From a virus (Duplodnaviria > Heunggongvirae > Uroviricota > Caudoviricetes): a stretch of DNA of 15,574 nt. Both the position numbers and the translations under genes were made by a program. The stretch lies in IMG/VR virus record IMGVR_UViG_2802429244_000016, one strand, 5' to 3'. This document shows, piece after piece, positions 1,611 through 15,574 of this stretch (within the stretch, counting starts at the first letter, position 1; every line of letters starts with the position of its first letter). The notes under the pieces were generated by a model. It was not told where the DNA came from. It searched no databases and saw only the letters and a list, made by a program, of their open reading frames with translations.

Positions 1611-2825
1611 GTGAAACTCAATGCCCGTCAAATAGACACAGCTAAGCCAAAAGAGAAGGCTTACAAGCTGGCCGATGGTGGCGGTTTGTATCTCTTGGTA
1701 AAACCTAATGGAGGTAAATACTGGCGACTTAAATATCGTGTAGCTGGTAAAGAGAAGCTATTGGCACTAGGTGTTTATCCTGAGGTTACTCTAGCCGATG
1801 CTCGGGCAAAACGTGAAGATGCGAAAAGAGGTATCGCTGGTGGTATCGATCCGATGGAAGCGAAACGAGAGGAAAAGATTGCCCGGGAAACGCAGTTAAA
1901 CAACACCTTCAAAGATATTGCCCTTGAGTGGCACAGCAGCAAATTAAAAAAATGGTCTGCTGGTTATGCTTCAGACATCCTCGAAGCCTTCAACAAAGAT
2001 GTGTTCCCTTACATTGGCAAAAAACCCATCGCCGAAATCAAACCACTTGAACTTCTGAATGTGCTGCGTCGCATCGAGGGGCGCGGTGCTACAGAAAAAG
2101 CCAAAAAAGTGAGGCAACGGTGCGGGGAAGTTTTCCGCTATGCAATAGTCACTGGTCGCGCAGAGTATAACCCTGCACCAGACCTTACTAGCGCGATGCA
2201 AGGCCATGAATCTAATCATTACCCTTTCCTTACAGCCAAAGAATTACCTGATTTTTTCAAGGCATTGTCCAGTTACTCAGGAAGCGCATTGGTTGTTATG
2301 GCGGCTCGTCTACTGATTATCACCGGCTTGCGGACTGGCGAACTACGTGGCGCATTATGGGATGAAATTGATTTCAACAAGGCTATCTGGGAGATACCCG
2401 CTTCACGTATGAAAATGCGGCGGCCTCATATTGTGCCATTGTCTGAGCAGGCTCTTTCGCTTATTGGGAAGATTAGAGAAATAACAGGCAATTACCCTCT
2501 TATGTTTCCCGGGCGCAATGATCCAAGGAAAACAATGAGCGAGGCCAGCATAAACCAAGTGTTTAAGCGCATTGGCTACGCTGGACGTGTAACTGGTCAT
2601 GGGTTCCGGCACACTATGAGTACGATTTTGCATGAGCAGGGCTATAACACTGCGTGGATAGAAACGCAGCTCGCTCACGTTGATAAGAACTCAATTCGTG
2701 GCACATACAACCATGCGCAATATCTGGATGGAAGGCGGGAGATGCTTCAATGGTATGCCGACTATATGGATTCTCTCGAGCATGGCGGAAATGTGGTGCA
2801 TATGGTGTTTGAAAAACACGCATGA
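1611..2825 (+). CDS. int: Tyrosine site-specific integrase, P4/CP4-57 IntA family (GTG start)
   Basis: 404-aa ORF. N-terminus MKLNARQIDTAKPKEKAYKLADGGGLYLLVKPNGGKYWRLKYR is typical of P4-type integrases; the C-terminal catalytic region has R (LRTGELRGALW), HGFRHT and the nucleophile Y in RGTYNH. Located immediately 3' of a tRNA. Confidence 0.93.
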   Translation: MKLNARQIDTAKPKEKAYKLADGGGLYLLVKPNGGKYWRLKYRVAGKEKLLALGVYPEVTLADARAKREDAKRGIAGGIDPMEAKREEKIARETQLNNTFKDIALEWHSSKLKKWSAGYASDILEAFNKDVFPYIGKKPIAEIKPLELLNVLRRIEGRGATEKAKKVRQRCGEVFRYAIVTGRAEYNPAPDLTSAMQGHESNHYPFLTAKELPDFFKALSSYSGSALVVMAARLLIITGLRTGELRGALWDEIDFNKAIWEIPASRMKMRRPHIVPLSEQALSLIGKIREITGNYPLMFPGRNDPRKTMSEASINQVFKRIGYAGRVTGHGFRHTMSTILHEQGYNTAWIETQLAHVDKNSIRGTYNHAQYLDGRREMLQWYADYMDSLEHGGNVVHMVFEKHA

Positions 2826-2898
2826 AACAACTGGACAAGTATACAGAGGTTTACTAAAGTATAAGGGAGTAGATTGATAAAAACTCACAGAGGATTGC

Positions 2899-3214
2899 TA
2901 TTTAACAGTTAGCCATGGAGAAGGGCAATCGCTCTTTTAACAACGAAGATGGAATCTTCTACGCAGCTGAAAAGCTGGATGCTCTTTAACAGCCTTTGGT
3001 GCTTTCCTGATGCAGGAAAGAATAGGGATACATGCACCTTTACAATGCATGTAATGATTCATCCATGAGGCTGCGGAGCGCTGACAAAGCGCAATTGCTC
3101 TTTAACATTGATGTGGGCGGGATGGTTCGTCCCGCAGTGACCGATAGATTTCTATCGGGAAACATACAATGATTCAAATATGAATCTACGGCGCTGACAA
3201 AGCGCAATTGCTCT
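2899..3214 (+). repeat. Repeat-rich int-alpA intergenic region: exact 24-bp direct repeat GCGCTGACAAAGCGCAATTGCTCT twice, plus 3-4 copies of a CTCTTTAACA-like motif
   Basis: Identical 24-mers at 3078-3101 and 3191-3214, each with an internal hairpin GCGCT-GACAA-AGCGC. CTCTTTAACA-like copies at 2931-2942, 2981-2991 and 3098-3107. Hairpin GCGGGATGGTTCGTCCCGC near 3117-3135. Confidence 0.55.
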
Positions 3215-3476
3215 CTTGCCTGCCCACCATGCCCTGAAAAAGGGCGTTCTTTAAAACTACTGGATGTCACGCCTAATAGCGTGATCCTGCCGAAATGCAG
3301 GGTAGCTCTACCCTTGTGGAGCAAACAAACCAAAACAATCTGACTATCTTTTATAAAAGACCGCAATATGTTTTTCATATTGTGGTCTTTGGCGTATTCG
3401 ACATTTGACGCAAATAAAACTCTCGCCATTCGTTGCAGGAGGGGGTTATTGCGTCATTAGTACAGGATATTAATAA

Positions 3477-3680
3477 ATGGCTAATTACAATTCATTAATT
3501 CGTCTCTCTGAAGTTCAAAGGCGAACTGGTTATAGCAAAGCATGGATTTATCGTCTTATTAGTCAGGGGAGGTTCCCTAAACAGGTAAAAATTGGAAGTC
3601 GGGCTATTGCTTTTGTTGAGTCTGAAATAGATGAATGGATTGAGAAGTGTATATTAGAATCTAGAGACGAGGTGGCCTGA
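3477..3680 (+). CDS. alpA: AlpA-family phage/satellite transcriptional regulator (excisionase-like winged-helix DNA binding)
   Basis: 67-aa protein MANYNSLIRLSEVQRRTGYSKAWIYRLISQGRFPKQVKIGSRAIAFVESEIDEWIE, the classic AlpA motif pattern; positioned just downstream of the P4-type integrase. Confidence 0.85.
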   Translation: MANYNSLIRLSEVQRRTGYSKAWIYRLISQGRFPKQVKIGSRAIAFVESEIDEWIEKCILESRDEVA

Positions 3681-4111
3681 TGGAAAAGAAAAACCGCCCA
3701 TTACAGGCGGCTAATTCAGATATTCGCGTATCTGATGTTACGCCCCTGACAAAATCCCTTCAAGCACCAAAGCGCACACCGAAAAAGCATCGTGCCAGAG
3801 TCTATATGCTGCGTACTGGTATAGAGGGATGGACAGAAAATGACATTCTTCGCTACTGCCGTCTGTCTTCTGGTCGTAACTATGCAACAGAGTTAGAACG
3901 CCAGCTTGGAATCACTCTGGAGCGTATCGACGAAAAGAATCCTGATGGTATCGGAACACACCTTCGCTACCGTTTCTCCTGCCGTGGTGATGTTCTGAAA
4001 GTGATCACTCATATTAACCATCTTGCGAACATAAATGATCACAACGGACTTTCTCAGCAGGAAATTGCCGACATTCTGAAACTCTACCCGGACGCGTTTA
4101 ACGCCGCCTAA
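3680..4111 (+). CDS. Hypothetical protein (143 aa), basic N-terminus, translationally coupled to alpA
   Basis: ATG overlaps the alpA stop (TGATG). Protein starts MEKKNRPLQAANSDIRVSDV; K/R-rich N-terminus (PKRTPKKHRAR). No family recognised. Confidence 0.6.
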   Translation: MEKKNRPLQAANSDIRVSDVTPLTKSLQAPKRTPKKHRARVYMLRTGIEGWTENDILRYCRLSSGRNYATELERQLGITLERIDEKNPDGIGTHLRYRFSCRGDVLKVITHINHLANINDHNGLSQQEIADILKLYPDAFNAA

Positions 4112-4123
4112 CGGAGACTGAAA

Positions 4124-4957
4124 ATGAACATCGAAAAAAGCAGATTAATTTCTGAGGCCGCCCCTCATCTGAACGCCTCTCTGGGCACAATTAACGGTAA
4201 TGAATTTGCCGCAATTGTCCCGGTTATTCCTGGTCATATCGGTGGGCGTGAAACCAATATTGTTAGCGCAAAAGCGTTGCACAAAGCGTTGGGCGTGGGA
4301 AAAGACTTCTCTACATGGATCACTGATCGCATCTCTGAATATGACTTCACCATTGGGCACGATTACTCAGTCCATAAAACTATTTCCCCAAATTTGGGGA
4401 AAAGCCCGAATGGCGCGGCTTACAGCAAGATTAAGCAGTCTGGCAGACCCGGCAAAGACTATCTGTTAAGTGTCGGAATGGCGAAAGAACTGGCAATGAT
4501 CGAACGCAATGATCAGGGTCGCGCTATCCGCCGTTATTTCATCCAGTGCGAGGAAGAATTACAGCGTAGCGTGCCTGAAATCGCCGCCCGCTATCGTCGC
4601 CAGCTAAAAGCCCGTATCAGTGCCGCAAACAACTTTAAGCCAATGTGCGATGCGCTGAATATGGCCCGTGCCGAGATGGGGAAAACGACGCAGCAACACC
4701 ACTACACAAACGAGAGCAATATGATTTCTCGTATCGTTCTTGGTGGGCTAACTGCTAAGCAGTGGGCGCGGATAAATGGCTATTCTGGCGAACCTCGCGA
4801 CCATATGAACGCAGAACAGCTTGAGCACCTCTCATATCTCGAAAGCACCAATATCACGTTAATTGATATGGGCATGGAATATGAGCAGCGCAAAGGAGAA
4901 CTCACCCGCCTGTCGCAACGCTGGCTCGCCAAGCGTCTGGAGGCGCTCAATGTCTAA
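4124..4957 (+). CDS. Phage antirepressor-like protein with AntA-type N-terminal domain
   Basis: 277 aa; GGAG upstream of the ATG. Segment SAKALHKALGVGKDFSTWITDRISEYDFTIGHDYSV resembles the AntA/AntB motif (W-I-x-x-R-I-x-x-Y-x-F-x-x-G-x-D-Y), recalled from memory. Confidence 0.55.
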   Translation: MNIEKSRLISEAAPHLNASLGTINGNEFAAIVPVIPGHIGGRETNIVSAKALHKALGVGKDFSTWITDRISEYDFTIGHDYSVHKTISPNLGKSPNGAAYSKIKQSGRPGKDYLLSVGMAKELAMIERNDQGRAIRRYFIQCEEELQRSVPEIAARYRRQLKARISAANNFKPMCDALNMARAEMGKTTQQHHYTNESNMISRIVLGGLTAKQWARINGYSGEPRDHMNAEQLEHLSYLESTNITLIDMGMEYEQRKGELTRLSQRWLAKRLEALNV

Positions 4958-5132
4958 GCCAACAGGAATACCACAACCTCAAAAACGCTACAAAGATGCC
5001 CACGGAGCACTCGTTACTGTCGAAAGCGTGTCTCACAACCGAGTGACGTTTTATCGCGACGGGTATCAATCGCCATGCGTACAACCGCTGGCGCGCTTCA
5101 TGAAGGAGTTCGCGGAGGTTAACAAATGCTAA
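4950..5132 (+). CDS. Small hypothetical protein (60 aa; DUF4222-like by recollection)
   Basis: ATG at 4950 preceded by GGAGG (4939-4943) and overlapping the upstream stop; MSKPTGIPQPQKRYKDAHGALVTVESVSHNRVTFYRDGYQSPCVQPLARFMKEFAEVNKC. The ORF track's 4863 start lacks an RBS. Confidence 0.55.
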   Translation: MSKPTGIPQPQKRYKDAHGALVTVESVSHNRVTFYRDGYQSPCVQPLARFMKEFAEVNKC

Positions 5133-5563
5133 CCGCCCAGAAGAAGACATTTTCACTGGCTGGCATGTCGCCAAAATCCAGCAATATGACAGCAAAGTCA
5201 GGCATTAATACAGCAGATACAAGCAAAGTTTATCATTTGCTGGTGGTAGGAGCGGATGCCTTAACTATGTCAGAAATCACGGTCGATGGTGTTAGCGTTG
5301 AGAAGGTCAGCGGCTGCGCCAGAGAATTTCTGGTCGTAGATCACCTGTTCTGCTCGTGTAGTGACTCCACAAAAACATTCGTCCACGCGCGTGACGTTAA
5401 CGAAATGAGCGCGATGTACTGTGCTTCTGGTTCTTCCAATAGTGAGTTTTCGGAGTCCATAAAAAAGAGCTTGCCGTTATGCGGCAACACGGTTTATGGT
5501 TATAAGGCACCTCATAAAACGGGTGCCGGGTTTCGCAGCCCGGAAATGTACGAGGCGACACAT

Positions 5564-5584
5564 GACGCGCCGAGCGTCTTTTTT
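5564..5584 (+). terminator. Candidate intrinsic terminator (short GC stem plus T6)
   Basis: GACGC-GCCGA-GCGTC followed by TTTTTT (5579-5584). Stem is only 5 bp, so this is weak. Confidence 0.35.
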
Positions 5585-5594
5585 TGTGCCGTTA

Positions 5595-5632
5595 GCCAGA
5601 CTCACACTTTTTTCAGTGATGTGGTTATAATC
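5595..5632 (+). promoter_or_regulatory. Candidate sigma70 promoter for the small-ORF/primase operon (perfect -10 TATAAT at 5625-5630)
   Basis: GTGATGTGGTTATAATCCGCG; no convincing -35 hexamer (CACACT-like at about 5602-5607). Lies downstream of the candidate terminator and upstream of the structured leader. Confidence 0.35.
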
Positions 5633-5639
5633 CGCGTCG

Positions 5640-5788
5640 CTTGCAAAATTATGGTGGGCTGGACAGGGCAGCCGAAAGGCTGGCCGGTTTCCTTGTACGC
5701 CGGTACTGCGAACTCTGTTCAGTCCACCACCAGCGAGTTTCGCAGCTCCGGTGGTGGGAAGAATTCCCAGTACAAGGAGGCTGCCACA
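5640..5788 (+). ncRNA. Structured 5' leader / candidate regulatory RNA upstream of the primase operon (possible P4 CI-RNA-like immunity element)
   Basis: GNRA hairpin CAGCC-GAAA-GGCTG (5668-5681); 8-bp stem CCACCACC (5723-5730) / GGTGGTGG (5749-5756) presenting loop TTTCGCAG; single-stranded CTGCGAA (5706-5712) complementary to that loop; an upstream hairpin CCGGG-TTTCGCAG-CCCGG (5526-5543) presents the same loop sequence. Confidence 0.4.
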
Positions 5789-5982
5789 TGCTGGCTACTA
5801 CCCCTACCCAAAAACCGCAATTTATCTGGATTATCGCCGCAGTTCGCCGCGATTGCCAGACAATTACCGCCAAAATTCATCATATTGCTGCCGAGTCTGA
5901 ACGCGATGCTCGCCGTTCTCTGGTGCGCGATCACGTCTGCTTTTTTGCTGGTCGTATCCGCATGGAGGTGGCACATGATTAA
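5789..5982 (+). CDS. Hypothetical small protein (64 aa), first gene of the coupled operon
   Basis: Strong RBS AGGAGG (5775-5780) 8 nt before the ATG at 5789; MLATTPTQKPQFIWIIAAVRRDCQTITAKIHHIAAESERDARRSLVRDHVCFFAGRIRMEVAHD. Confidence 0.55.
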
Positions 5983-6193
5983 AACCTACGATGTGCATAT
6001 GGATCCCCTCGAACGCACAAGCCAGATCATCACACTGACAGAGGTGATTAATGACATTCTGGTGAGCAACTCTCCCTCACGAGACGAAAAACTGAAGGCG
6101 TTACTCGCGATATTGGATCTCGCCGTTCGTGACGTTCATTTCCTGCTGGAAGGTGGACAAATGCCATGCAAAACGGGGGCAACCAATGAATAA
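5975..6193 (+). CDS. Hypothetical small protein (72 aa)
   Basis: ATG at 5975 preceded by GGAGG (5964-5968) and overlapping the upstream stop; MIKTYDVHMDPLERTSQIITLTEVINDILVS... The ORF track shows this frame open from 5126, but the upstream part lacks a start context. Confidence 0.5.
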   Translation: MIKTYDVHMDPLERTSQIITLTEVINDILVSNSPSRDEKLKALLAILDLAVRDVHFLLEGGQMPCKTGATNE

Positions 6194-7805: not shown

Positions 7806-8169
7806 AAATGCAGAAATGGCGCTTAGCTCCGCAATCGGAGAGCAGGTGGCAAAGATTGCTGGTGCTGTGTGGATTCATAACCTTCATTCTACTGGTGAAG
7901 AGAAAATGGCAATTCAGACGCCAGAGGGACGCACCATTACTACATCTCTGAAGCCGTCAGATATTTGTGATCTGATTTGCACATTCATGTACCCAGCAAT
8001 GAGGACTGTCCACGGCGATAAGTGGAAACTTGCGACAACCGCTGAATTTGATATGTGGCTAAACAATGATGGCATGCTGACTGATTACGGAATAACCAAG
8101 TGGCAGATGCTGGTTAGCCATATCGCAAACGCTATAGACCACGTGGGGTACGGTGATGCGAAACATTGA
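7798..8169 (+). CDS. Hypothetical protein (123 aa)
   Basis: RBS GGAGG (7788-7792) then ATG at 7798, overlapping the upstream stop; MRENAEMALSSAIGEQVAKIAGAVWIHNLHSTGEEK... Confidence 0.6.
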   Translation: MRENAEMALSSAIGEQVAKIAGAVWIHNLHSTGEEKMAIQTPEGRTITTSLKPSDICDLICTFMYPAMRTVHGDKWKLATTAEFDMWLNNDGMLTDYGITKWQMLVSHIANAIDHVGYGDAKH

Positions 8170-10912
8170 TCTTATCCGTCAGGTTATCAGTGCGTCTGAA
8201 AACAACTGGCCTCATGTGCTGGGCTGCCTGAACATAAATGTCCCTGACTCTCCGCGCCGTCATGCTCCCTGCCCTGCATGTGGGGGCAAAGATCGATTCC
8301 GGTTCGATGACAACGGGCGCGGTAGCTTCATCTGTAATCAGTGCGGCGCTGGTGATGGGCTGGATTTAATTAAACGCGTAAATAACTGCGACACAACAGA
8401 GGCGGCGCTTCTTGCCGCTGATGTTCTGGGTATTGATTACCGGACAACGGAAACACCAGAAGCCACCAGCCAGAAACGGGAACAACAGGAAACCGAGCGC
8501 CAGCGACGCGAACAGGAGCGCCTGAAAAGGGCAGAGAAGGACGAACAACAAAGACGGGATACGTTTTCCCGTCAGTTTGATGACATGCGCAGAAAGGCTG
8601 TAAACGGCAAATCTGATTATCTGGTTGCGAAAGGGGTAGGTGATTTTACATTCCCCGTGTTGCCCGATGGATCTCTGTTGCTGGCGCTGGTGGATAAATC
8701 CGGCGCAGTAACAGCAGCACAGACTATTACCTCACATGGTGAAAAAAGACTCCTGACAGGTTCAGCAAAGCGAGGGGCATATCACGCCATAAACGCACCA
8801 GAAACAACACAGAGCATCTTAATCGCAGAAGGGCTGGCAACGGCATTATCTGCCCATTTAATTCGTCCAGAGGCGCTGACAGTGGCGGCGATTGATGCCG
8901 GGAACCTGTTATATGTCGCCCAGGTACTGCGGGATAAATTTCCTTCAGCACAAATCATCATTGCTGCGGATAACGACCACAGCGAAGGAAGACAAAACAC
9001 GGGGAGAATAGCAGCAGAAAAGGCAGCTTTATCTGTTTCTGGATGGGTGGCATTACCCCCGACAGATCACAAAGCAGACTGGAATGATTACCACCAAAAA
9101 CACGGCATTAAATGCGCCACAGAAGCGTTCAATAAGTCAATGTACCAACCACAGGGTAATGGCGTGAAACAGGAGCCACAGACCATTGAGGGAAGCGATT
9201 TTAAGGTTATGGATACCGACCCACTGAAACCAAGAATAGAAAGCCGCGAGGATGGTATTTATTGGGTATCTCCGAGAGCTGACAGCCAGAGTGGAGAAAT
9301 CATCAATAACGAAAGCTGGTTATGTTCTCCGTTAAGCGTTATCGGTACTGGCAGAGACGATAAAGACCAGTATCTCATTCTTCGCTGGCTGTCGTTTGGT
9401 TCTGAAACGCCGACAACCGCTGCCATTCCACTGGCTGATATTGGTGAACGTGAAGGATGGCGCACACTTAAAGCTGGTGGGGTAAATGTCACGACCAAAA
9501 GCAGCCTCAGAGCAATACTGGCAGACTGGCTACAACGCAGTGGCTCTCGTGAATTGTGGCGTGTTGCTCATGCCACTGGCTGGCAATGCGGAGCGTACAT
9601 CATGCCTGATGGGGAAATCATCGGAACACCTGAAAATCCTGTGCTGTTCAGCGGGAGAAGCTCAGCCGCAGCCGGATATACCGTCTCAGGGAGCGCGAAA
9701 AGCTGGCGTGATAACGTGGCGCGTCTGGCCTTTGGTAACTATTCAATGATGACCGGGATCGGCGCAGCACTGGCAGCGCCATTGATTGGGCTGGTGGGCG
9801 CTGACGGGTTCGGCATTCATTTCTATGAGCAGTCGAGCGCAGGTAAGACCACCACGGCAAACGTGGCGAGCAGCTTATACGGCAACCCTGATTTACTGCG
9901 GCTGACGTGGTACGGAACCGCGCTGGGGCTGGCAAATGAAGCCGCCGCCCACAATGACGGACTAATGCCGCTTGATGAAGTTGGTCAGGGCGCTGATCCT
10001 GTCAGTGTTTCACAGTCTGCCTATGCGTTATTTAACGGTGTAGGGAAACTGCAAGGTGCTAAAGATGGTGGAAACCGGGATCTAAAACGCTGGCGTACAG
10101 TGGCAATCAGCACCGGAGAAATGGATTTAGAAACATTTATCGCTACTTCCGGGCGAAAAACCAAAGCCGGGCAACTGGTGCGACTGCTGAATATTCCGTT
10201 GAGTAAAGCAGTACGCTTTCACGATTACCAGAACGGAAAACAGCACGCAGACGCACTGAAAGACGCTTACCAGCATCACCACGGCGCAGCCGGGCGTGAG
10301 TGGATTAAATGGCTGGCAGACCACCAGCAACAGGCTATTAAAACTGTTCGTGACTGCGAAAGCAGATGGAGAAGCCTGATTCCATCCGATTATGGTGAGC
10401 AGGTTCACCGTGTAGCCGCGCGATTTGCCATTCTGGAGGCCGCATTGCTGTTAGGCGAGGTTGTAACAGGCTGGGATGCTCAGACATGCCGTGATGCGAT
10501 ACAGCACAGCTATAACGCATGGTTGCGCGAGTTCGGCACAGGTAACAAAGAACATCAGCAGATTATTGAACAAACGGAGGCATTTCTTAATGCCTATGGG
10601 CTTAGCCGTTTTGCACCATTTCCATACAGCCCGGCAGATTTGCCAATCAAAGATTTAGCCGGATACCGTCAGCGTGGAGAACATGACGAAAGCCCAATGA
10701 TTTTCTACACATTCCCGGCCACATTTGAAAAGGAGATCGCATGTGGTTTCAACGCAAAACAGTTTGCTGAAGTGTTGAAAAAAGCCGGGATGCTAACCCC
10801 ACCAAACAGCGGTCGTGGATACCAAAGAAAATCACCACGTATTCAGGGACGACAAATAAACGTTTATGTACTCAATTACCAGCCAGGAGATTACAACTCA
10901 TCTGAAGAATGA
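8153..10912 (+). CDS. Bifunctional DNA primase/helicase, P4 alpha-like (zinc-ribbon + TOPRIM primase N-terminus, P-loop NTPase C-terminus); functionally the pri-rep of a satellite
   Basis: 919 aa. Cys4 zinc ribbon CPACGGKDRFRFDDNGRGSFICNQCG; TOPRIM-like IAEGLATALS and IIIAADNDHSEGRQNTG; Walker A FYEQSSAGKTT. Start is GTG 8153 or ATG 8156, overlapping the upstream gene. Confidence 0.9.
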   Translation: MMRNIDLIRQVISASENNWPHVLGCLNINVPDSPRRHAPCPACGGKDRFRFDDNGRGSFICNQCGAGDGLDLIKRVNNCDTTEAALLAADVLGIDYRTTETPEATSQKREQQETERQRREQERLKRAEKDEQQRRDTFSRQFDDMRRKAVNGKSDYLVAKGVGDFTFPVLPDGSLLLALVDKSGAVTAAQTITSHGEKRLLTGSAKRGAYHAINAPETTQSILIAEGLATALSAHLIRPEALTVAAIDAGNLLYVAQVLRDKFPSAQIIIAADNDHSEGRQNTGRIAAEKAALSVSGWVALPPTDHKADWNDYHQKHGIKCATEAFNKSMYQPQGNGVKQEPQTIEGSDFKVMDTDPLKPRIESREDGIYWVSPRADSQSGEIINNESWLCSPLSVIGTGRDDKDQYLILRWLSFGSETPTTAAIPLADIGEREGWRTLKAGGVNVTTKSSLRAILADWLQRSGSRELWRVAHATGWQCGAYIMPDGEIIGTPENPVLFSGRSSAAAGYTVSGSAKSWRDNVARLAFGNYSMMTGIGAALAAPLIGLVGADGFGIHFYEQSSAGKTTTANVASSLYGNPDLLRLTWYGTALGLANEAAAHNDGLMPLDEVGQGADPVSVSQSAYALFNGVGKLQGAKDGGNRDLKRWRTVAISTGEMDLETFIATSGRKTKAGQLVRLLNIPLSKAVRFHDYQNGKQHADALKDAYQHHHGAAGREWIKWLADHQQQAIKTVRDCESRWRSLIPSDYGEQVHRVAARFAILEAALLLGEVVTGWDAQTCRDAIQHSYNAWLREFGTGNKEHQQIIEQTEAFLNAYGLSRFAPFPYSPADLPIKDLAGYRQRGEHDESPMIFYTFPATFEKEIACGFNAKQFAEVLKKAGMLTPPNSGRGYQRKSPRIQGRQINVYVLNYQPGDYNSSEE

Positions 10913-11493: not shown

Positions 11494-11673
11494 ATGGCTA
11501 TTTCAGTAAAGCCAGTATTGATAAGTGAGAAGCAAATGGAAGCGATAAAGAAAATTCAGGAAGAGCAGCGTAAAAAATCAGAGGTAGGAGTTGCGCCAAC
11601 GATCCATGAAATTGCTCGGGGATTAATGGATAAGGCGCTGACAATACACGCAAAAATGAAGGTGTCTGCATGA
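11494..11673 (+). CDS. Small hypothetical protein (59 aa), translationally coupled to the 604-aa gene
   Basis: Not in the supplied ORF track (below its length cut-off). RBS AAGGGGG (11482-11488) then ATG at 11494; TATAAT at 11455-11460 upstream; stop TGA overlaps the next ATG (ATGA). MAISVKPVLISEKQMEAIKKIQEEQRKKSEVGVAPTIHEIARGLMDKALTIHAKMKVSA. Confidence 0.5.
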   Translation: MAISVKPVLISEKQMEAIKKIQEEQRKKSEVGVAPTIHEIARGLMDKALTIHAKMKVSA

Positions 11674-13484
11674 TTATCAATGAGTTGGCCTACAAGGTCA
11701 CAATTAAGGCCGATGAATTCCTGAATGGAAAACGGAAAGTAAAAGATGAAGTTAGTAAATTAAACAAAGATCTTTCCAGGGCTGAGAAGGAAAGGTTAAA
11801 GGAACTTGAAAAACAACGGCAGGAAATGGAGAAGTTCAGTAAAAACGCTGTTTCAGCTTTCCGCAACGTGACAACAGCAGCCGCTGGATTTTTGGGAATC
11901 GGCGCTGGGTTGTATGGAATCAAGCAACTTTTTACATCTACCGTCAACGAAATCGTGAGAGCCAGTCAACAGGCCAAGTTTTTCGGTTCTGATGTTAATA
12001 AGATGTTTGGTGTTCAGCGGGGATTTCGTCAGGCTGGTCTTAACGGTGACTCGTTCATTTCATCTTCTGGGAATGCCAGAATGGCTTTGGCAAATATTGC
12101 CGATCCAACTGTTATGGGAGGGCTTACTGGCGCTGCCCAAAATTTGCTGGTTCTTGGCGCTCGCACCGGATTAGATATCAATAAGCTCGGTGACCCAAAC
12201 AAGGCTCTTGCTGAGTTTTCTCGCTATGGCAAGACTCATTCTCAAGAAAACCTGATGCAGGTGATGGCTGCCGCAGGGTTCGATCCGACAGATGCCGCTA
12301 AAATAAAATCAGGGGAACTTAAGCAGCTTGTCGATTCAGAAACAAAGAAATCCCGTATTACCGCACAGCAGGTAAAAGAGCAGGAGAAGGTTGCCGCCAC
12401 TCTTGGTCAACTTGATTCAGAGTTTTCCCGATTAAAGCAAAATTTAGCCATGGCATTTGCTCCTGACGTTATTGACGGAATGAAGGCTTTTGGTTCCTGG
12501 ATTGAGAAACATCATGGCGACATCATTGGCTTTTTCAATGACGCCGGAAATATGACGAAGCAATTCACAAAGGCAGTTGGTGGTGCGGAAGAGGCTCTGA
12601 AACTATTGGCAGCAGCATATGTAGGAAGCAAACTTACAGGCGGCGCCCTTCCTCCATGGTTGGCTGGGTTAATAGCATATGGTTTGTATCTCTACAATGA
12701 CAGGGAAAACATTGAGGGTGCAGCTAAAGGATCGTTTGATTACTCTAAGCGTGAACTTGGAGATACCATGCGCAGCATGGGGTTTGACACCGATTTTGGG
12801 CGTAGGGGAGATGAGATTTATGGCAATAACATTCAGCCAGATATCCCTCTCCCTGACGGAGTAAAGCCAGTAAGCATGGATTCTCTCCTTGACGCCATTC
12901 GTGAGGTGGAATCGAGTGGTGGTAAAAAACTTTATAGCCCGAAAGGTGCTGTTGGTCCGTATCAGTTCATGAAGGATACTGCCATAGCGTACGGGTTAAA
13001 GGTCGGGGATGGGATTGATGAGCGCCTTGATGAGGTGAAATCTCGCGCTGCTGCTGAAAGGTTCATGAGGGATTTGCTAAAGCACTATAAAGGCAATGTT
13101 AACCATGCGCTGATGGCTTACAACTGGGGGATGGGCAATGTAGATAAAAAGTTAAAATACATATCCAGTACCGGGTTTGATTCACCATCATCCAAATACT
13201 GGAACACCTTACCGAAAGAGACGCGAGAATATGTGCCAAAGATTCGCGCAGCTCTTAATGCAAAAGAAAACGAGACGCTGGCTTACTATCAGCAGCAGCA
13301 ACGCATCGCCTCAACACCAAGCCAGACAACATCAAAAATTGACAACAGCCGTAGCAGCAGTACAACTATTGGCACGGTTGTTGTTAACAGTAACCCGACA
13401 ACAGTTGATGCTCTTACCAGAAGTGTCAATCAGCAAGTTAGCCGGGTGTCAACAAACGCGGCATTTTCTAGTGCCGTTAAGTAG
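11670..13484 (+). CDS. Coiled-coil, membrane-associated protein with C-terminal lytic transglycosylase (SLT/lysozyme-like) domain and Q/S/T-rich tail; tape-measure or injection-protein-like architecture
   Basis: 604 aa. N-terminal K/E-rich coiled coil (about aa 20-60); hydrophobic segments AAAGFLGIGAGLYGI and ALPPWLAGLIAYGLYLY; SLT signature about aa 404-490 (nt about 12879-13140): DAIREVESSGG, GAVGPYQFM, ALMAYNWGMGN. Tail YYQQQQRIASTPSQTTSKIDNSRSSSTT. Confidence 0.8.
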   Translation: MIINELAYKVTIKADEFLNGKRKVKDEVSKLNKDLSRAEKERLKELEKQRQEMEKFSKNAVSAFRNVTTAAAGFLGIGAGLYGIKQLFTSTVNEIVRASQQAKFFGSDVNKMFGVQRGFRQAGLNGDSFISSSGNARMALANIADPTVMGGLTGAAQNLLVLGARTGLDINKLGDPNKALAEFSRYGKTHSQENLMQVMAAAGFDPTDAAKIKSGELKQLVDSETKKSRITAQQVKEQEKVAATLGQLDSEFSRLKQNLAMAFAPDVIDGMKAFGSWIEKHHGDIIGFFNDAGNMTKQFTKAVGGAEEALKLLAAAYVGSKLTGGALPPWLAGLIAYGLYLYNDRENIEGAAKGSFDYSKRELGDTMRSMGFDTDFGRRGDEIYGNNIQPDIPLPDGVKPVSMDSLLDAIREVESSGGKKLYSPKGAVGPYQFMKDTAIAYGLKVGDGIDERLDEVKSRAAAERFMRDLLKHYKGNVNHALMAYNWGMGNVDKKLKYISSTGFDSPSSKYWNTLPKETREYVPKIRAALNAKENETLAYYQQQQRIASTPSQTTSKIDNSRSSSTTIGTVVVNSNPTTVDALTRSVNQQVSRVSTNAAFSSAVK

Positions 13485-15286: not shown

Positions 15287-15574
15287 ATGATAAGGGACAG
15301 GAAAGCTGAAGAGCTGGAGTCAAAAGGGCTATACCGGAGAGCTGCCGCACGATGGGCAGAAGTCATGATGCTGGCAGATGGCGATAAAGAACGTGAACAT
15401 GCAGCAAACAGACGCTCTGAATGTATCCGTAAGGCGGCACGCCCACCAGCAACTACAGACAGATTCGGAGATTTAAGACAGGCAGTTAAGCGGACTCATT
15501 CGGCTCTTGGTATGGATGAGGAAGCGAGAGGGTACTTCAGGCGTTATCGCGATAAAGATTGCCAGAGACAGTAA
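15287..15574 (+). CDS. PerC-family transcriptional regulator-like protein (95 aa)
   Basis: RBS GAGAGG before the ATG; MIRDRKAEELESKGLYRRAAARWAEVMMLADGDKERE... matches the conserved PerC/Pch N-terminal pattern as I recall it; the stop TAA is the last codon of the window. Confidence 0.65.
   Translation: MIRDRKAEELESKGLYRRAAARWAEVMMLADGDKEREHAANRRSECIRKAARPPATTDRFGDLRQAVKRTHSALGMDEEARGYFRRYRDKDCQRQ

Follow-up and report, generated by a model that had tools for sequence, protein, structure and literature searches.

Genes directly downstream of alpA as a probable regulatory unit of an EcCIMP1-type phage-inducible chromosomal island

What part do the three genes that directly follow alpA play in the life of the mobile element that carries them? 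The question arises from a stretch of DNA of 15,574 nucleotides from IMG/VR virus record IMGVR_UViG_2802429244_000016 (hereafter called the window). In this stretch, alpA (positions 3477-3680, plus strand; Pfam Phage_AlpA, E = 7.4e-20) is followed on the same strand by orf143 (3680-4111), which encodes a protein of 143 amino acids, by the gene for an AntA-like protein of 277 amino acids (4124-4957), and by the gene for a DUF4222 protein of 60 amino acids (4950-5132). A preliminary description of this DNA viewed the element as a satellite and linked the three genes to the integrase-proximal region, a hotspot for variable genes in P4-like satellites. We consider it reasonably probable that alpA, at the head of the operon, and the three genes together constitute the promoter-proximal regulatory unit of a phage-inducible chromosomal island (PICI) of the EcCIMP1 type, with the individual protein roles proposed below.

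The genes of this unit are tightly packed. The alpA stop codon TGA and the orf143 start codon ATG share their A (TGATG, an overlap of 1 nt; ATGA in the feature annotation), the AntA-like gene starts after a 12-nt gap with GGAG ahead of its start codon, and the AntA-like and DUF4222 genes overlap by 8 nt. The coupling and overlap noted in the preliminary description are thus present in the open reading frames (ORFs). A terminator scan of the plus strand found nothing terminator-like from the alpA start to position 5407, and the first good plus-strand terminator after alpA, at 5564, belongs to an isrK-like RNA. Because the junctions are tight and no terminator-like site occurs before 5407, the genes from alpA through DUF4222 likely form one transcription unit. 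Comparison of six diverged loci revealed that third codon positions take 50-66% of the substitutions in orf143 and in the AntA-like and DUF4222 genes. This coding signature is indicative of purifying selection in all three, which on this evidence are not chance ORFs. The Prokaryotic Genome Annotation Pipeline (PGAP) calls the same three coding sequences in E. coli XB2, whose locus is 98.8% identical to that of the window.

The best-described relative of the element is EcCIMP1, a PICI of E. coli MP1 that is mobilized by the P22-like temperate phage Kapi1, for which helper-dependent induction, excision, and transfer were demonstrated (Pick, Stadel & Raivio, ISME J 2025; PMC11773190; what is said here of EcCIMP1 draws on passages of that report). 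EcCIMP1 is integrated in tRNA-Thr between proA and yagU with the core att sequence TCCTATTATC (PMC11773190). The left end of the window carries proA (1-1254), followed by tRNA-Thr (CGT) at 1370-1445 on the plus strand, as identified by ARAGORN and Rfam alignment. This tRNA gene serves as the attachment site and includes the reported core att in its 3′ end. A P4-type tyrosine integrase gene (1611-2825, plus strand; Pfam Arm-DNA-bind_3, Phage_int_M, and Phage_integrase) adjoins the tRNA at this end of the island, whose right end lies outside the window. As in EcCIMP1, a canonical alpA is present directly downstream of int, and both int and alpA have the same orientation. The replication module is on this strand as well, ending with a primase gene (8153-10912) that encodes Zn ribbon, Toprim, and DUF927 domains. 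Beyond it are the gene for an ejection-like protein of 604 amino acids with an SLT domain (11670-13484) and a PerC-family gene (15287-15574) that continues past the end of the window. The order proA, tRNA-Thr, int, alpA, antirepressor, Ash/C4 region, primase, ejection-like protein, PerC is that of the published EcCIMP1 map, in which the integration site and the succession of int, alpA, antirepressor, Ash region, primase, DNA-transfer proteins, and PerC are the same. Apart from the SLT-domain protein, Pfam and PHROGs scans of the window ORFs revealed no capsid, tail, or lysis genes. Judged by its gene content and layout, the element is a match to the published definition of Gram-negative PICIs, EcCIMP1 type, in every feature that was tested.

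The core set of a P4-like satellite comprises psu, delta, sid, epsilon, alpA, int, and alpha. Of these, only int, alpA, and an alpha-like primase were detected in the window, in addition to the C4 and isrK RNAs; Pfam, PHROGs, and Rfam scans gave no family matches for sid, delta, psu, or epsilon in the window, which excludes the right part of the island. The satellite context proposed in the preliminary description holds, but “P4-like satellite” is a less apt name for the element than EcCIMP1-type PICI, one whose isrK/C4 RNA immunity region is P4/P1-like. Coverage of the window by any complete E. coli genome reaches 79% at most, and the window is a mosaic relative of EcCIMP1 and not EcCIMP1 itself. 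The alpA-orf143-antA-DUF4222 module is common, with at least 80% of positions 3680-5132 carried by 614 of 5,426 complete E. coli genomes.

What is known of the module in EcCIMP1 centers on alpA. The published map labels an “antirepressor,” and the tests covered alpA, alpA_1, int, and PerC (PMC11773190). Conservation among EcCIMP1-like islands is highest in the antirepressor, the Ash region, and the primase (PMC11773190), and the searched passages of that report name neither DUF4222 nor any gene located between alpA and the antirepressor, the position that orf143 has in the window.

Orf143 is basic, as initially described, with a pI of 9.5 overall and 11.4 for residues 1-45. Profile searches placed the other two proteins of the module in families and Orf143 in none, in keeping with the earlier impression that it has no assignable family: Pfam returned only a sub-threshold match to HTH_91 (E = 0.017), whereas PHROGs, NCBIfam, and PADLOC gave no match. 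Comparison with PDB sequences likewise produced nothing specific. An AlphaFold model built from a 35-sequence alignment (predicted local distance difference test score, pLDDT, 82; predicted template modeling score, pTM, 0.70) includes a disordered basic tail (residues 1-34), a winged helix (35-99) composed of three helices and then a beta-hairpin wing, and two C-terminal helices. Orf143 models as a winged-helix protein and is predicted to bind DNA. No homologue was found in 50,697 phage records, BFVD provided no significant match, and only 93 cluster representatives among 1.84 billion proteins are matched. The protein is represented by 611 database clusters across Enterobacterales, with 73-100% identity among the 120 best listed, all of which are unnamed. 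On the basis of these searches, Orf143 is island-specific.

The distribution of orf143 was examined in 38 species-level loci of Enterobacterales from a genome collection. The stop codon of the upstream gene overlaps the orf143 start by 1 nt in 34 of the 38 loci and by 4 nt in two others, and the two genes abut in one. With the window included, this upstream gene is a Pfam AlpA member in 38 of 39 cases, and Orf143 relatives with only 33% and 45% identity are likewise encoded directly behind an AlpA gene. Within E. coli, a 99%-identical orf143 resides behind divergent alpA alleles and is accompanied by a different integrase, att site, and primase type. This indicates that recombination breaks at the alpA/orf143 junction and that the pair is nonetheless never separated. 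By the measure of this synteny, Orf143 is a fixed companion of AlpA across Enterobacterales and not a variable hotspot gene, whereas the second position and the placement of the DUF4222 gene do vary, as described below.

The orf143 coding region also carries a GC hairpin (CCGCC-N7-GGCGG, 3692-3712) within codons 5-11. Divergent loci keep a hairpin at these codons in another form (CCCGC-N6-GCGGG), and third codon positions are nearly invariant in this stretch. Read on the minus strand, the hairpin and an adjoining T-run resemble an intrinsic terminator directed towards alpA.

The AntA-like assignment of the second protein was borne out by Pfam, which places an AntA domain (PF08346) near the N terminus at residues 47-129 (E = 1.3e-21), and by PHROGs, which label the protein “anti-repressor Ant.” In its predicted structure, a KilA-N/APSES-like AntA domain (residues ~30-145) is followed by a long helix and by a helical C-terminal domain (~196-275) to which no Pfam family corresponds. 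Canonical phage antirepressors carry AntA, Rha, or Bro-N joined to KilAC or P22_AR_C. In residues 131-277 of the AntA-like protein, neither KilAC (PF03374) nor P22_AR_C was detected at E up to 1; both domains were detected in Klebsiella phage P12620-1 and Kapi1_032/065, and Kapi1 encodes its own Rha+KilAC and Bro-N+P22_AR_C antirepressors. Similarity to a canonical AntA+KilAC protein is strong in the N-terminal half only. We considered whether the C terminus might be a divergent KilAC domain, but neither this comparison nor the domain scan supported the idea. The C-terminal half matches PHROG 2657, and residues 165-266 match the PADLOC defense-candidate model PDC-S22 (E = 4.5e-11); the nine other proteins scanned with PADLOC, seven from the window and two from sister loci, gave no match. 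Over residues 46-220, the AntA-like protein is homologous to proteins of streptococcal phages (TP-J34 type) that are annotated as antirepressors, and in TP-J34 the homologous gene is located directly after cro. The closest full-length phage homologue, with 64% identity, is an unannotated protein of Edwardsiella phage EPP-1.

The position of this gene is more constant than its content. In 36 of 36 loci, the gene in this slot starts 12-15 nt after orf143. Among 37 loci, the slot protein belongs to the AntA family in 21, to the Bro-N family in 13, and to the Rha family (Phage_pRha) in two. A MAFFT alignment hinted at a shared C-terminal domain among these proteins, but inspection and BLASTP comparisons showed that only the first ~20 residues (M-x-IEKSR-xx-SEAAP...) are common to the three families. 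[quoted passage not shown]

The last protein of the module matches DUF4222 (PF13973) over residues 7-58 of 60 (E = 3.8e-25), or essentially the whole domain. Its gene directly follows the slot gene in 13 of 37 loci, and in Klebsiella it is found just before the primase gene instead. Given this placement, DUF4222 is a facultative member of the module. The single studied member of the family that we found is RgdR of enterohemorrhagic E. coli (EHEC) O157:H7, a prophage-encoded activator of the cascade controlling the enterocyte effacement locus (LEE) and its type III secretion system (T3SS) (PMC10877973). RgdR shares with the window protein the Pfam family, the small size, and encoding by a mobile element, but differs in that it activates LEE/T3SS through Ler (PMC10877973).

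How might these proteins act together? In EcCIMP1, the alpA gene downstream of int is needed for excision, circularization, and transduction, and its promoter is activated by helper induction, not by DNA damage alone, with positive autoregulation (PMC11773190). In EcCICFT073, AlpA acts as an activator of both its own promoter and the gene that lies downstream of alpA (2018 PICI paper). If the window island behaves like these relatives, entry of the helper prophage into lytic growth would cause the alpA promoter to fire, AlpA would boost its own expression, and AlpA would be required for excision and transfer. The alpA, orf143, AntA-like, and DUF4222 genes would then be expressed from one mRNA by coupled translation, upstream of an isrK/C4 RNA immunity region that would gate the icd-to-primase replication operon. 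We propose that Orf143 acts on island DNA with AlpA or directly after it; its part there would be that of a co-regulator or of an architectural factor in activation or excision. The AntA-like protein is probably a partner-specific regulator that touches helper or host functions, and the DUF4222 protein may be an optional small regulator of the RgdR kind.

Several points weigh against this interpretation. The prediction that Orf143 binds DNA comes from a generic match in fold, and the analysis identified no target site for it. The model of the AntA-like protein has a pLDDT of only 66 overall, and its C-terminal half, which is of moderate confidence, has no informative structural neighbor. Gene spacing is the sole basis for the proposed co-transcription. 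The published EcCIMP1 alpA deletions, as presented in the passages used here, are not stated to be non-polar, such that the contributions of AlpA and Orf143 cannot be separated. Finally, only the integrase was matched when the window proteins were compared with the Kapi1 genome by tblastn. Because the 604-amino-acid ejection-like protein has no match in Kapi1, the helper of the window island may be a different P22-like phage.

Alternative roles for the AntA-like protein must also be weighed. One possibility, along the lines of the preliminary description, is that it is a true antirepressor, which would bind the repressor of the helper prophage and derepress the helper, on the model of P4 epsilon, which derepresses P2. 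The AntA domain, the PHROGs label, and the homology to the TP-J34-type proteins, with their cro-proximal gene, are all consistent with this, and the swapping of AntA, Bro-N, and Rha is what would be expected of a partner-specific, fast-changing interface. Moreover, the antirepressors of Kapi1 demonstrate that such switches exist in the system. Nevertheless, we regard a true antirepressor as unlikely, because the canonical C-terminal domains are absent, the homology to the canonical AntA+KilAC protein fades beyond the N-terminal half, and the N-terminal domain is predicted to adopt an APSES/KilA-N-like fold of the DNA-binding type. The timing is also unfavorable, given that the EcCIMP1 alpA promoter fires only once the helper is already induced, and deletion of the whole EcCIMP1 island changed neither Kapi1 titers nor CI-lux expression in the published experiments (PMC11773190). 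Alternatively, the AntA-like protein, perhaps with its neighbors, could be an interference or superinfection-immunity factor directed against incoming phages. This would give meaning to the PDC-S22 match and to the unexplained contribution of EcCIMP1 to superinfection immunity. However, PDC-S22 is a candidate chosen by genomic neighborhood for which we found no functional paper, and prophage “antirepressor” genes are easily caught up in candidate sets assembled in this manner. The gene also resides in a helper-induced early operon rather than in a constitutive cargo position, and no other window protein matched PADLOC. We consider an interference or immunity role quite improbable.

The proposal that a hotspot near the integrase carries the three genes as variable accessory cargo (morons) with no bearing on the satellite life cycle draws on the variable placement of DUF4222 and on the different families that occupy the second slot in different islands. 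Synteny has already largely refuted this reading, and we give it very little credence. The position of Orf143 is invariant, with high identity retained across genera among the matches listed, the slot spacing is constant in every locus compared, and all slot occupants belong to one functional class of phage regulator. In addition, the site that really varies is the int-alpA spacer. At the opposite extreme, AlpA and Orf143 might form a two-protein master switch, in which Orf143 would be an overlooked sensor of the helper signal or an excision-directionality factor and the slot an exchangeable helper-specificity cassette (AntA, Bro-N, or Rha) acting on the regulatory circuit of whatever helper the island uses, equivalent to a modular P4 epsilon. 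We consider this bolder proposal doubtful and continue to favor the regulatory unit with the roles outlined above.

The int-alpA spacer (2826-3476, about 650 bp) contains no conserved gene and is presumed to be the alpA promoter region. Two perfect 24-nt repeats of GCGCTGACAAAGCGCAATTGCTCT, each with a palindromic core, occur at 3078-3101 and 3191-3214 (within the stretch 3048-3214), and a repeat search also located a 15-bp inverted repeat at 3356-3390, ~90 nt upstream of the alpA start. These elements are candidate operators for AlpA, Orf143, or a helper inducer. Sister loci have a gene encoding 216-323 amino acids between int and alpA, and the window has none there. Examples are located at 6725-7696 in L003, 6840-7673 in L008, 7728-8693 in L010, and 7149-7799 in L055, and no Pfam or PADLOC family was found for these genes. 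The truly variable integrase-proximal site is therefore this spacer and not the module downstream of alpA. The Rfam int-alpA RNA motif (RF02996) occurs just after the integrase gene in L016 (5700-5763), L023 (5720-5788), L025 (5764-5832), and L046 (5561-5628), and has no match in the window at E up to 0.1.

The alpA unit is bounded downstream by the isrK-like RNA (5507-5584, plus strand; Rfam RF01394, 69 bits), which includes a terminator formed by positions 5564-5578 and a T-run. It is followed by a C4/CI-type antisense RNA, or immunity RNA (5647-5734, plus strand; Rfam RF01695, 81 bits), and by an icd-like gene (5788-5982, plus strand) that is recognized from the PGAP annotation of the XB2 locus and from its wobble pattern. 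This gene is the first in the downstream replication operon, and a series of small overlapping genes lies between it and the primase gene.

An ORF of 355 codons (5126-6193), whose product PGAP elsewhere names “ash family protein,” spans this region. We evaluated it as a fourth coupled protein gene and rejected it, since it is a composite rather than one protein gene. Third positions take 33-38% of its substitutions in the six diverged loci, and no codon periodicity is evident up to about position 5800. Both the isrK and the C4 RNA lie inside the ORF, which also overlaps the icd-like gene in a different frame and continues in frame into a real gene of 72 amino acids (5975-6193). An open frame that spans the RNA region, is at least 223 codons long, and is coupled to the preceding gene by a 1-8 nt overlap occurs nonetheless in 31 of 36 sister loci. 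Translation through the RNA target region could matter.

Comparisons with well-known systems help to place this arrangement. In the left operon of P4, the order is PLL-vis, then PLE-CI RNA-kil/eta-epsilon-alpha, with vis between PLL and PLE. The window similarly has an AlpA/Vis-type regulator upstream of a C4/CI-type immunity RNA, with an icd/kil-like gene and a primase after this RNA on the same strand, and by analogy the alpA unit would occupy the position of vis between the two promoters. In contrast with P4, the window has three extra genes between the Vis-type gene and the RNA region, its primase carries DUF927, epsilon, sid, delta, and psu were not detected in it, and the helper of its characterized relative is P22-like, not P2-like. 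The immI operon of P1 and P7 comprises c4 RNA, icd, and ant1/ant2, with ant translation coupled to icd. The same component types are found in the window, namely a C4 RNA, an Icd-like protein, and an AntA-family protein. However, antA is upstream of both C4 and icd in the window and thus is not gateable by C4 via icd-coupled translation. With ant upstream of C4 rather than downstream, the window departs from the gene order that defines immI. Gifsy-1 offers a further parallel in its isrK-orf45-anrP locus, which was horizontally acquired and has both an isrK RNA and an antirepressor-like gene. There, however, anrP is located downstream of isrK, with IsrK turning on its translation (PMC4825925), whereas the window antA is upstream of isrK.

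The island type itself is already known, and our analysis is mainly a correct re-annotation of a described, EcCIMP1-like type. The analysis newly assigns a winged helix to Orf143, describes its strict pairing with AlpA and the cassette nature of the next slot, and recognizes the int-alpA spacer as the variable site. When the 2018 PICI paper appeared, the inducer of alpA that the phage encodes was still to be identified for Gram-negative PICIs. Should Orf143 be an obligate AlpA partner, published alpA phenotypes may in part be due to Orf143, which in that case would be an obvious candidate when the inducer pathway is sought. Helper range could be explained by the AntA/Bro-N/Rha slot. Roughly one in ten complete E. 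coli genomes contains such islands, some of which have PerC-like genes that modulate LEE. The EcCIMP1 homologue of the window PerC-family gene represses LEE expression in Citrobacter rodentium (PMC11773190).

Two further observations concern the lineage as a whole. P22-type ejection or injection genes (SLT domain, DUF2824, gp7-like) follow the primase gene not only in the window (11670-13484) but also in L008 (15679-16432) and L001 (17586-21157). In addition, an EcCIMP1-like island that also has the alpA-orf143-antA-DUF4222 module forms a record of its own (L055; NZ_LT599831.1, 19,226 bp, “phage_14408_2”). The genes of this record stand in a circularly permuted order, from PerC and int onward to the injection protein, which suggests that it was assembled from an excised circular form.

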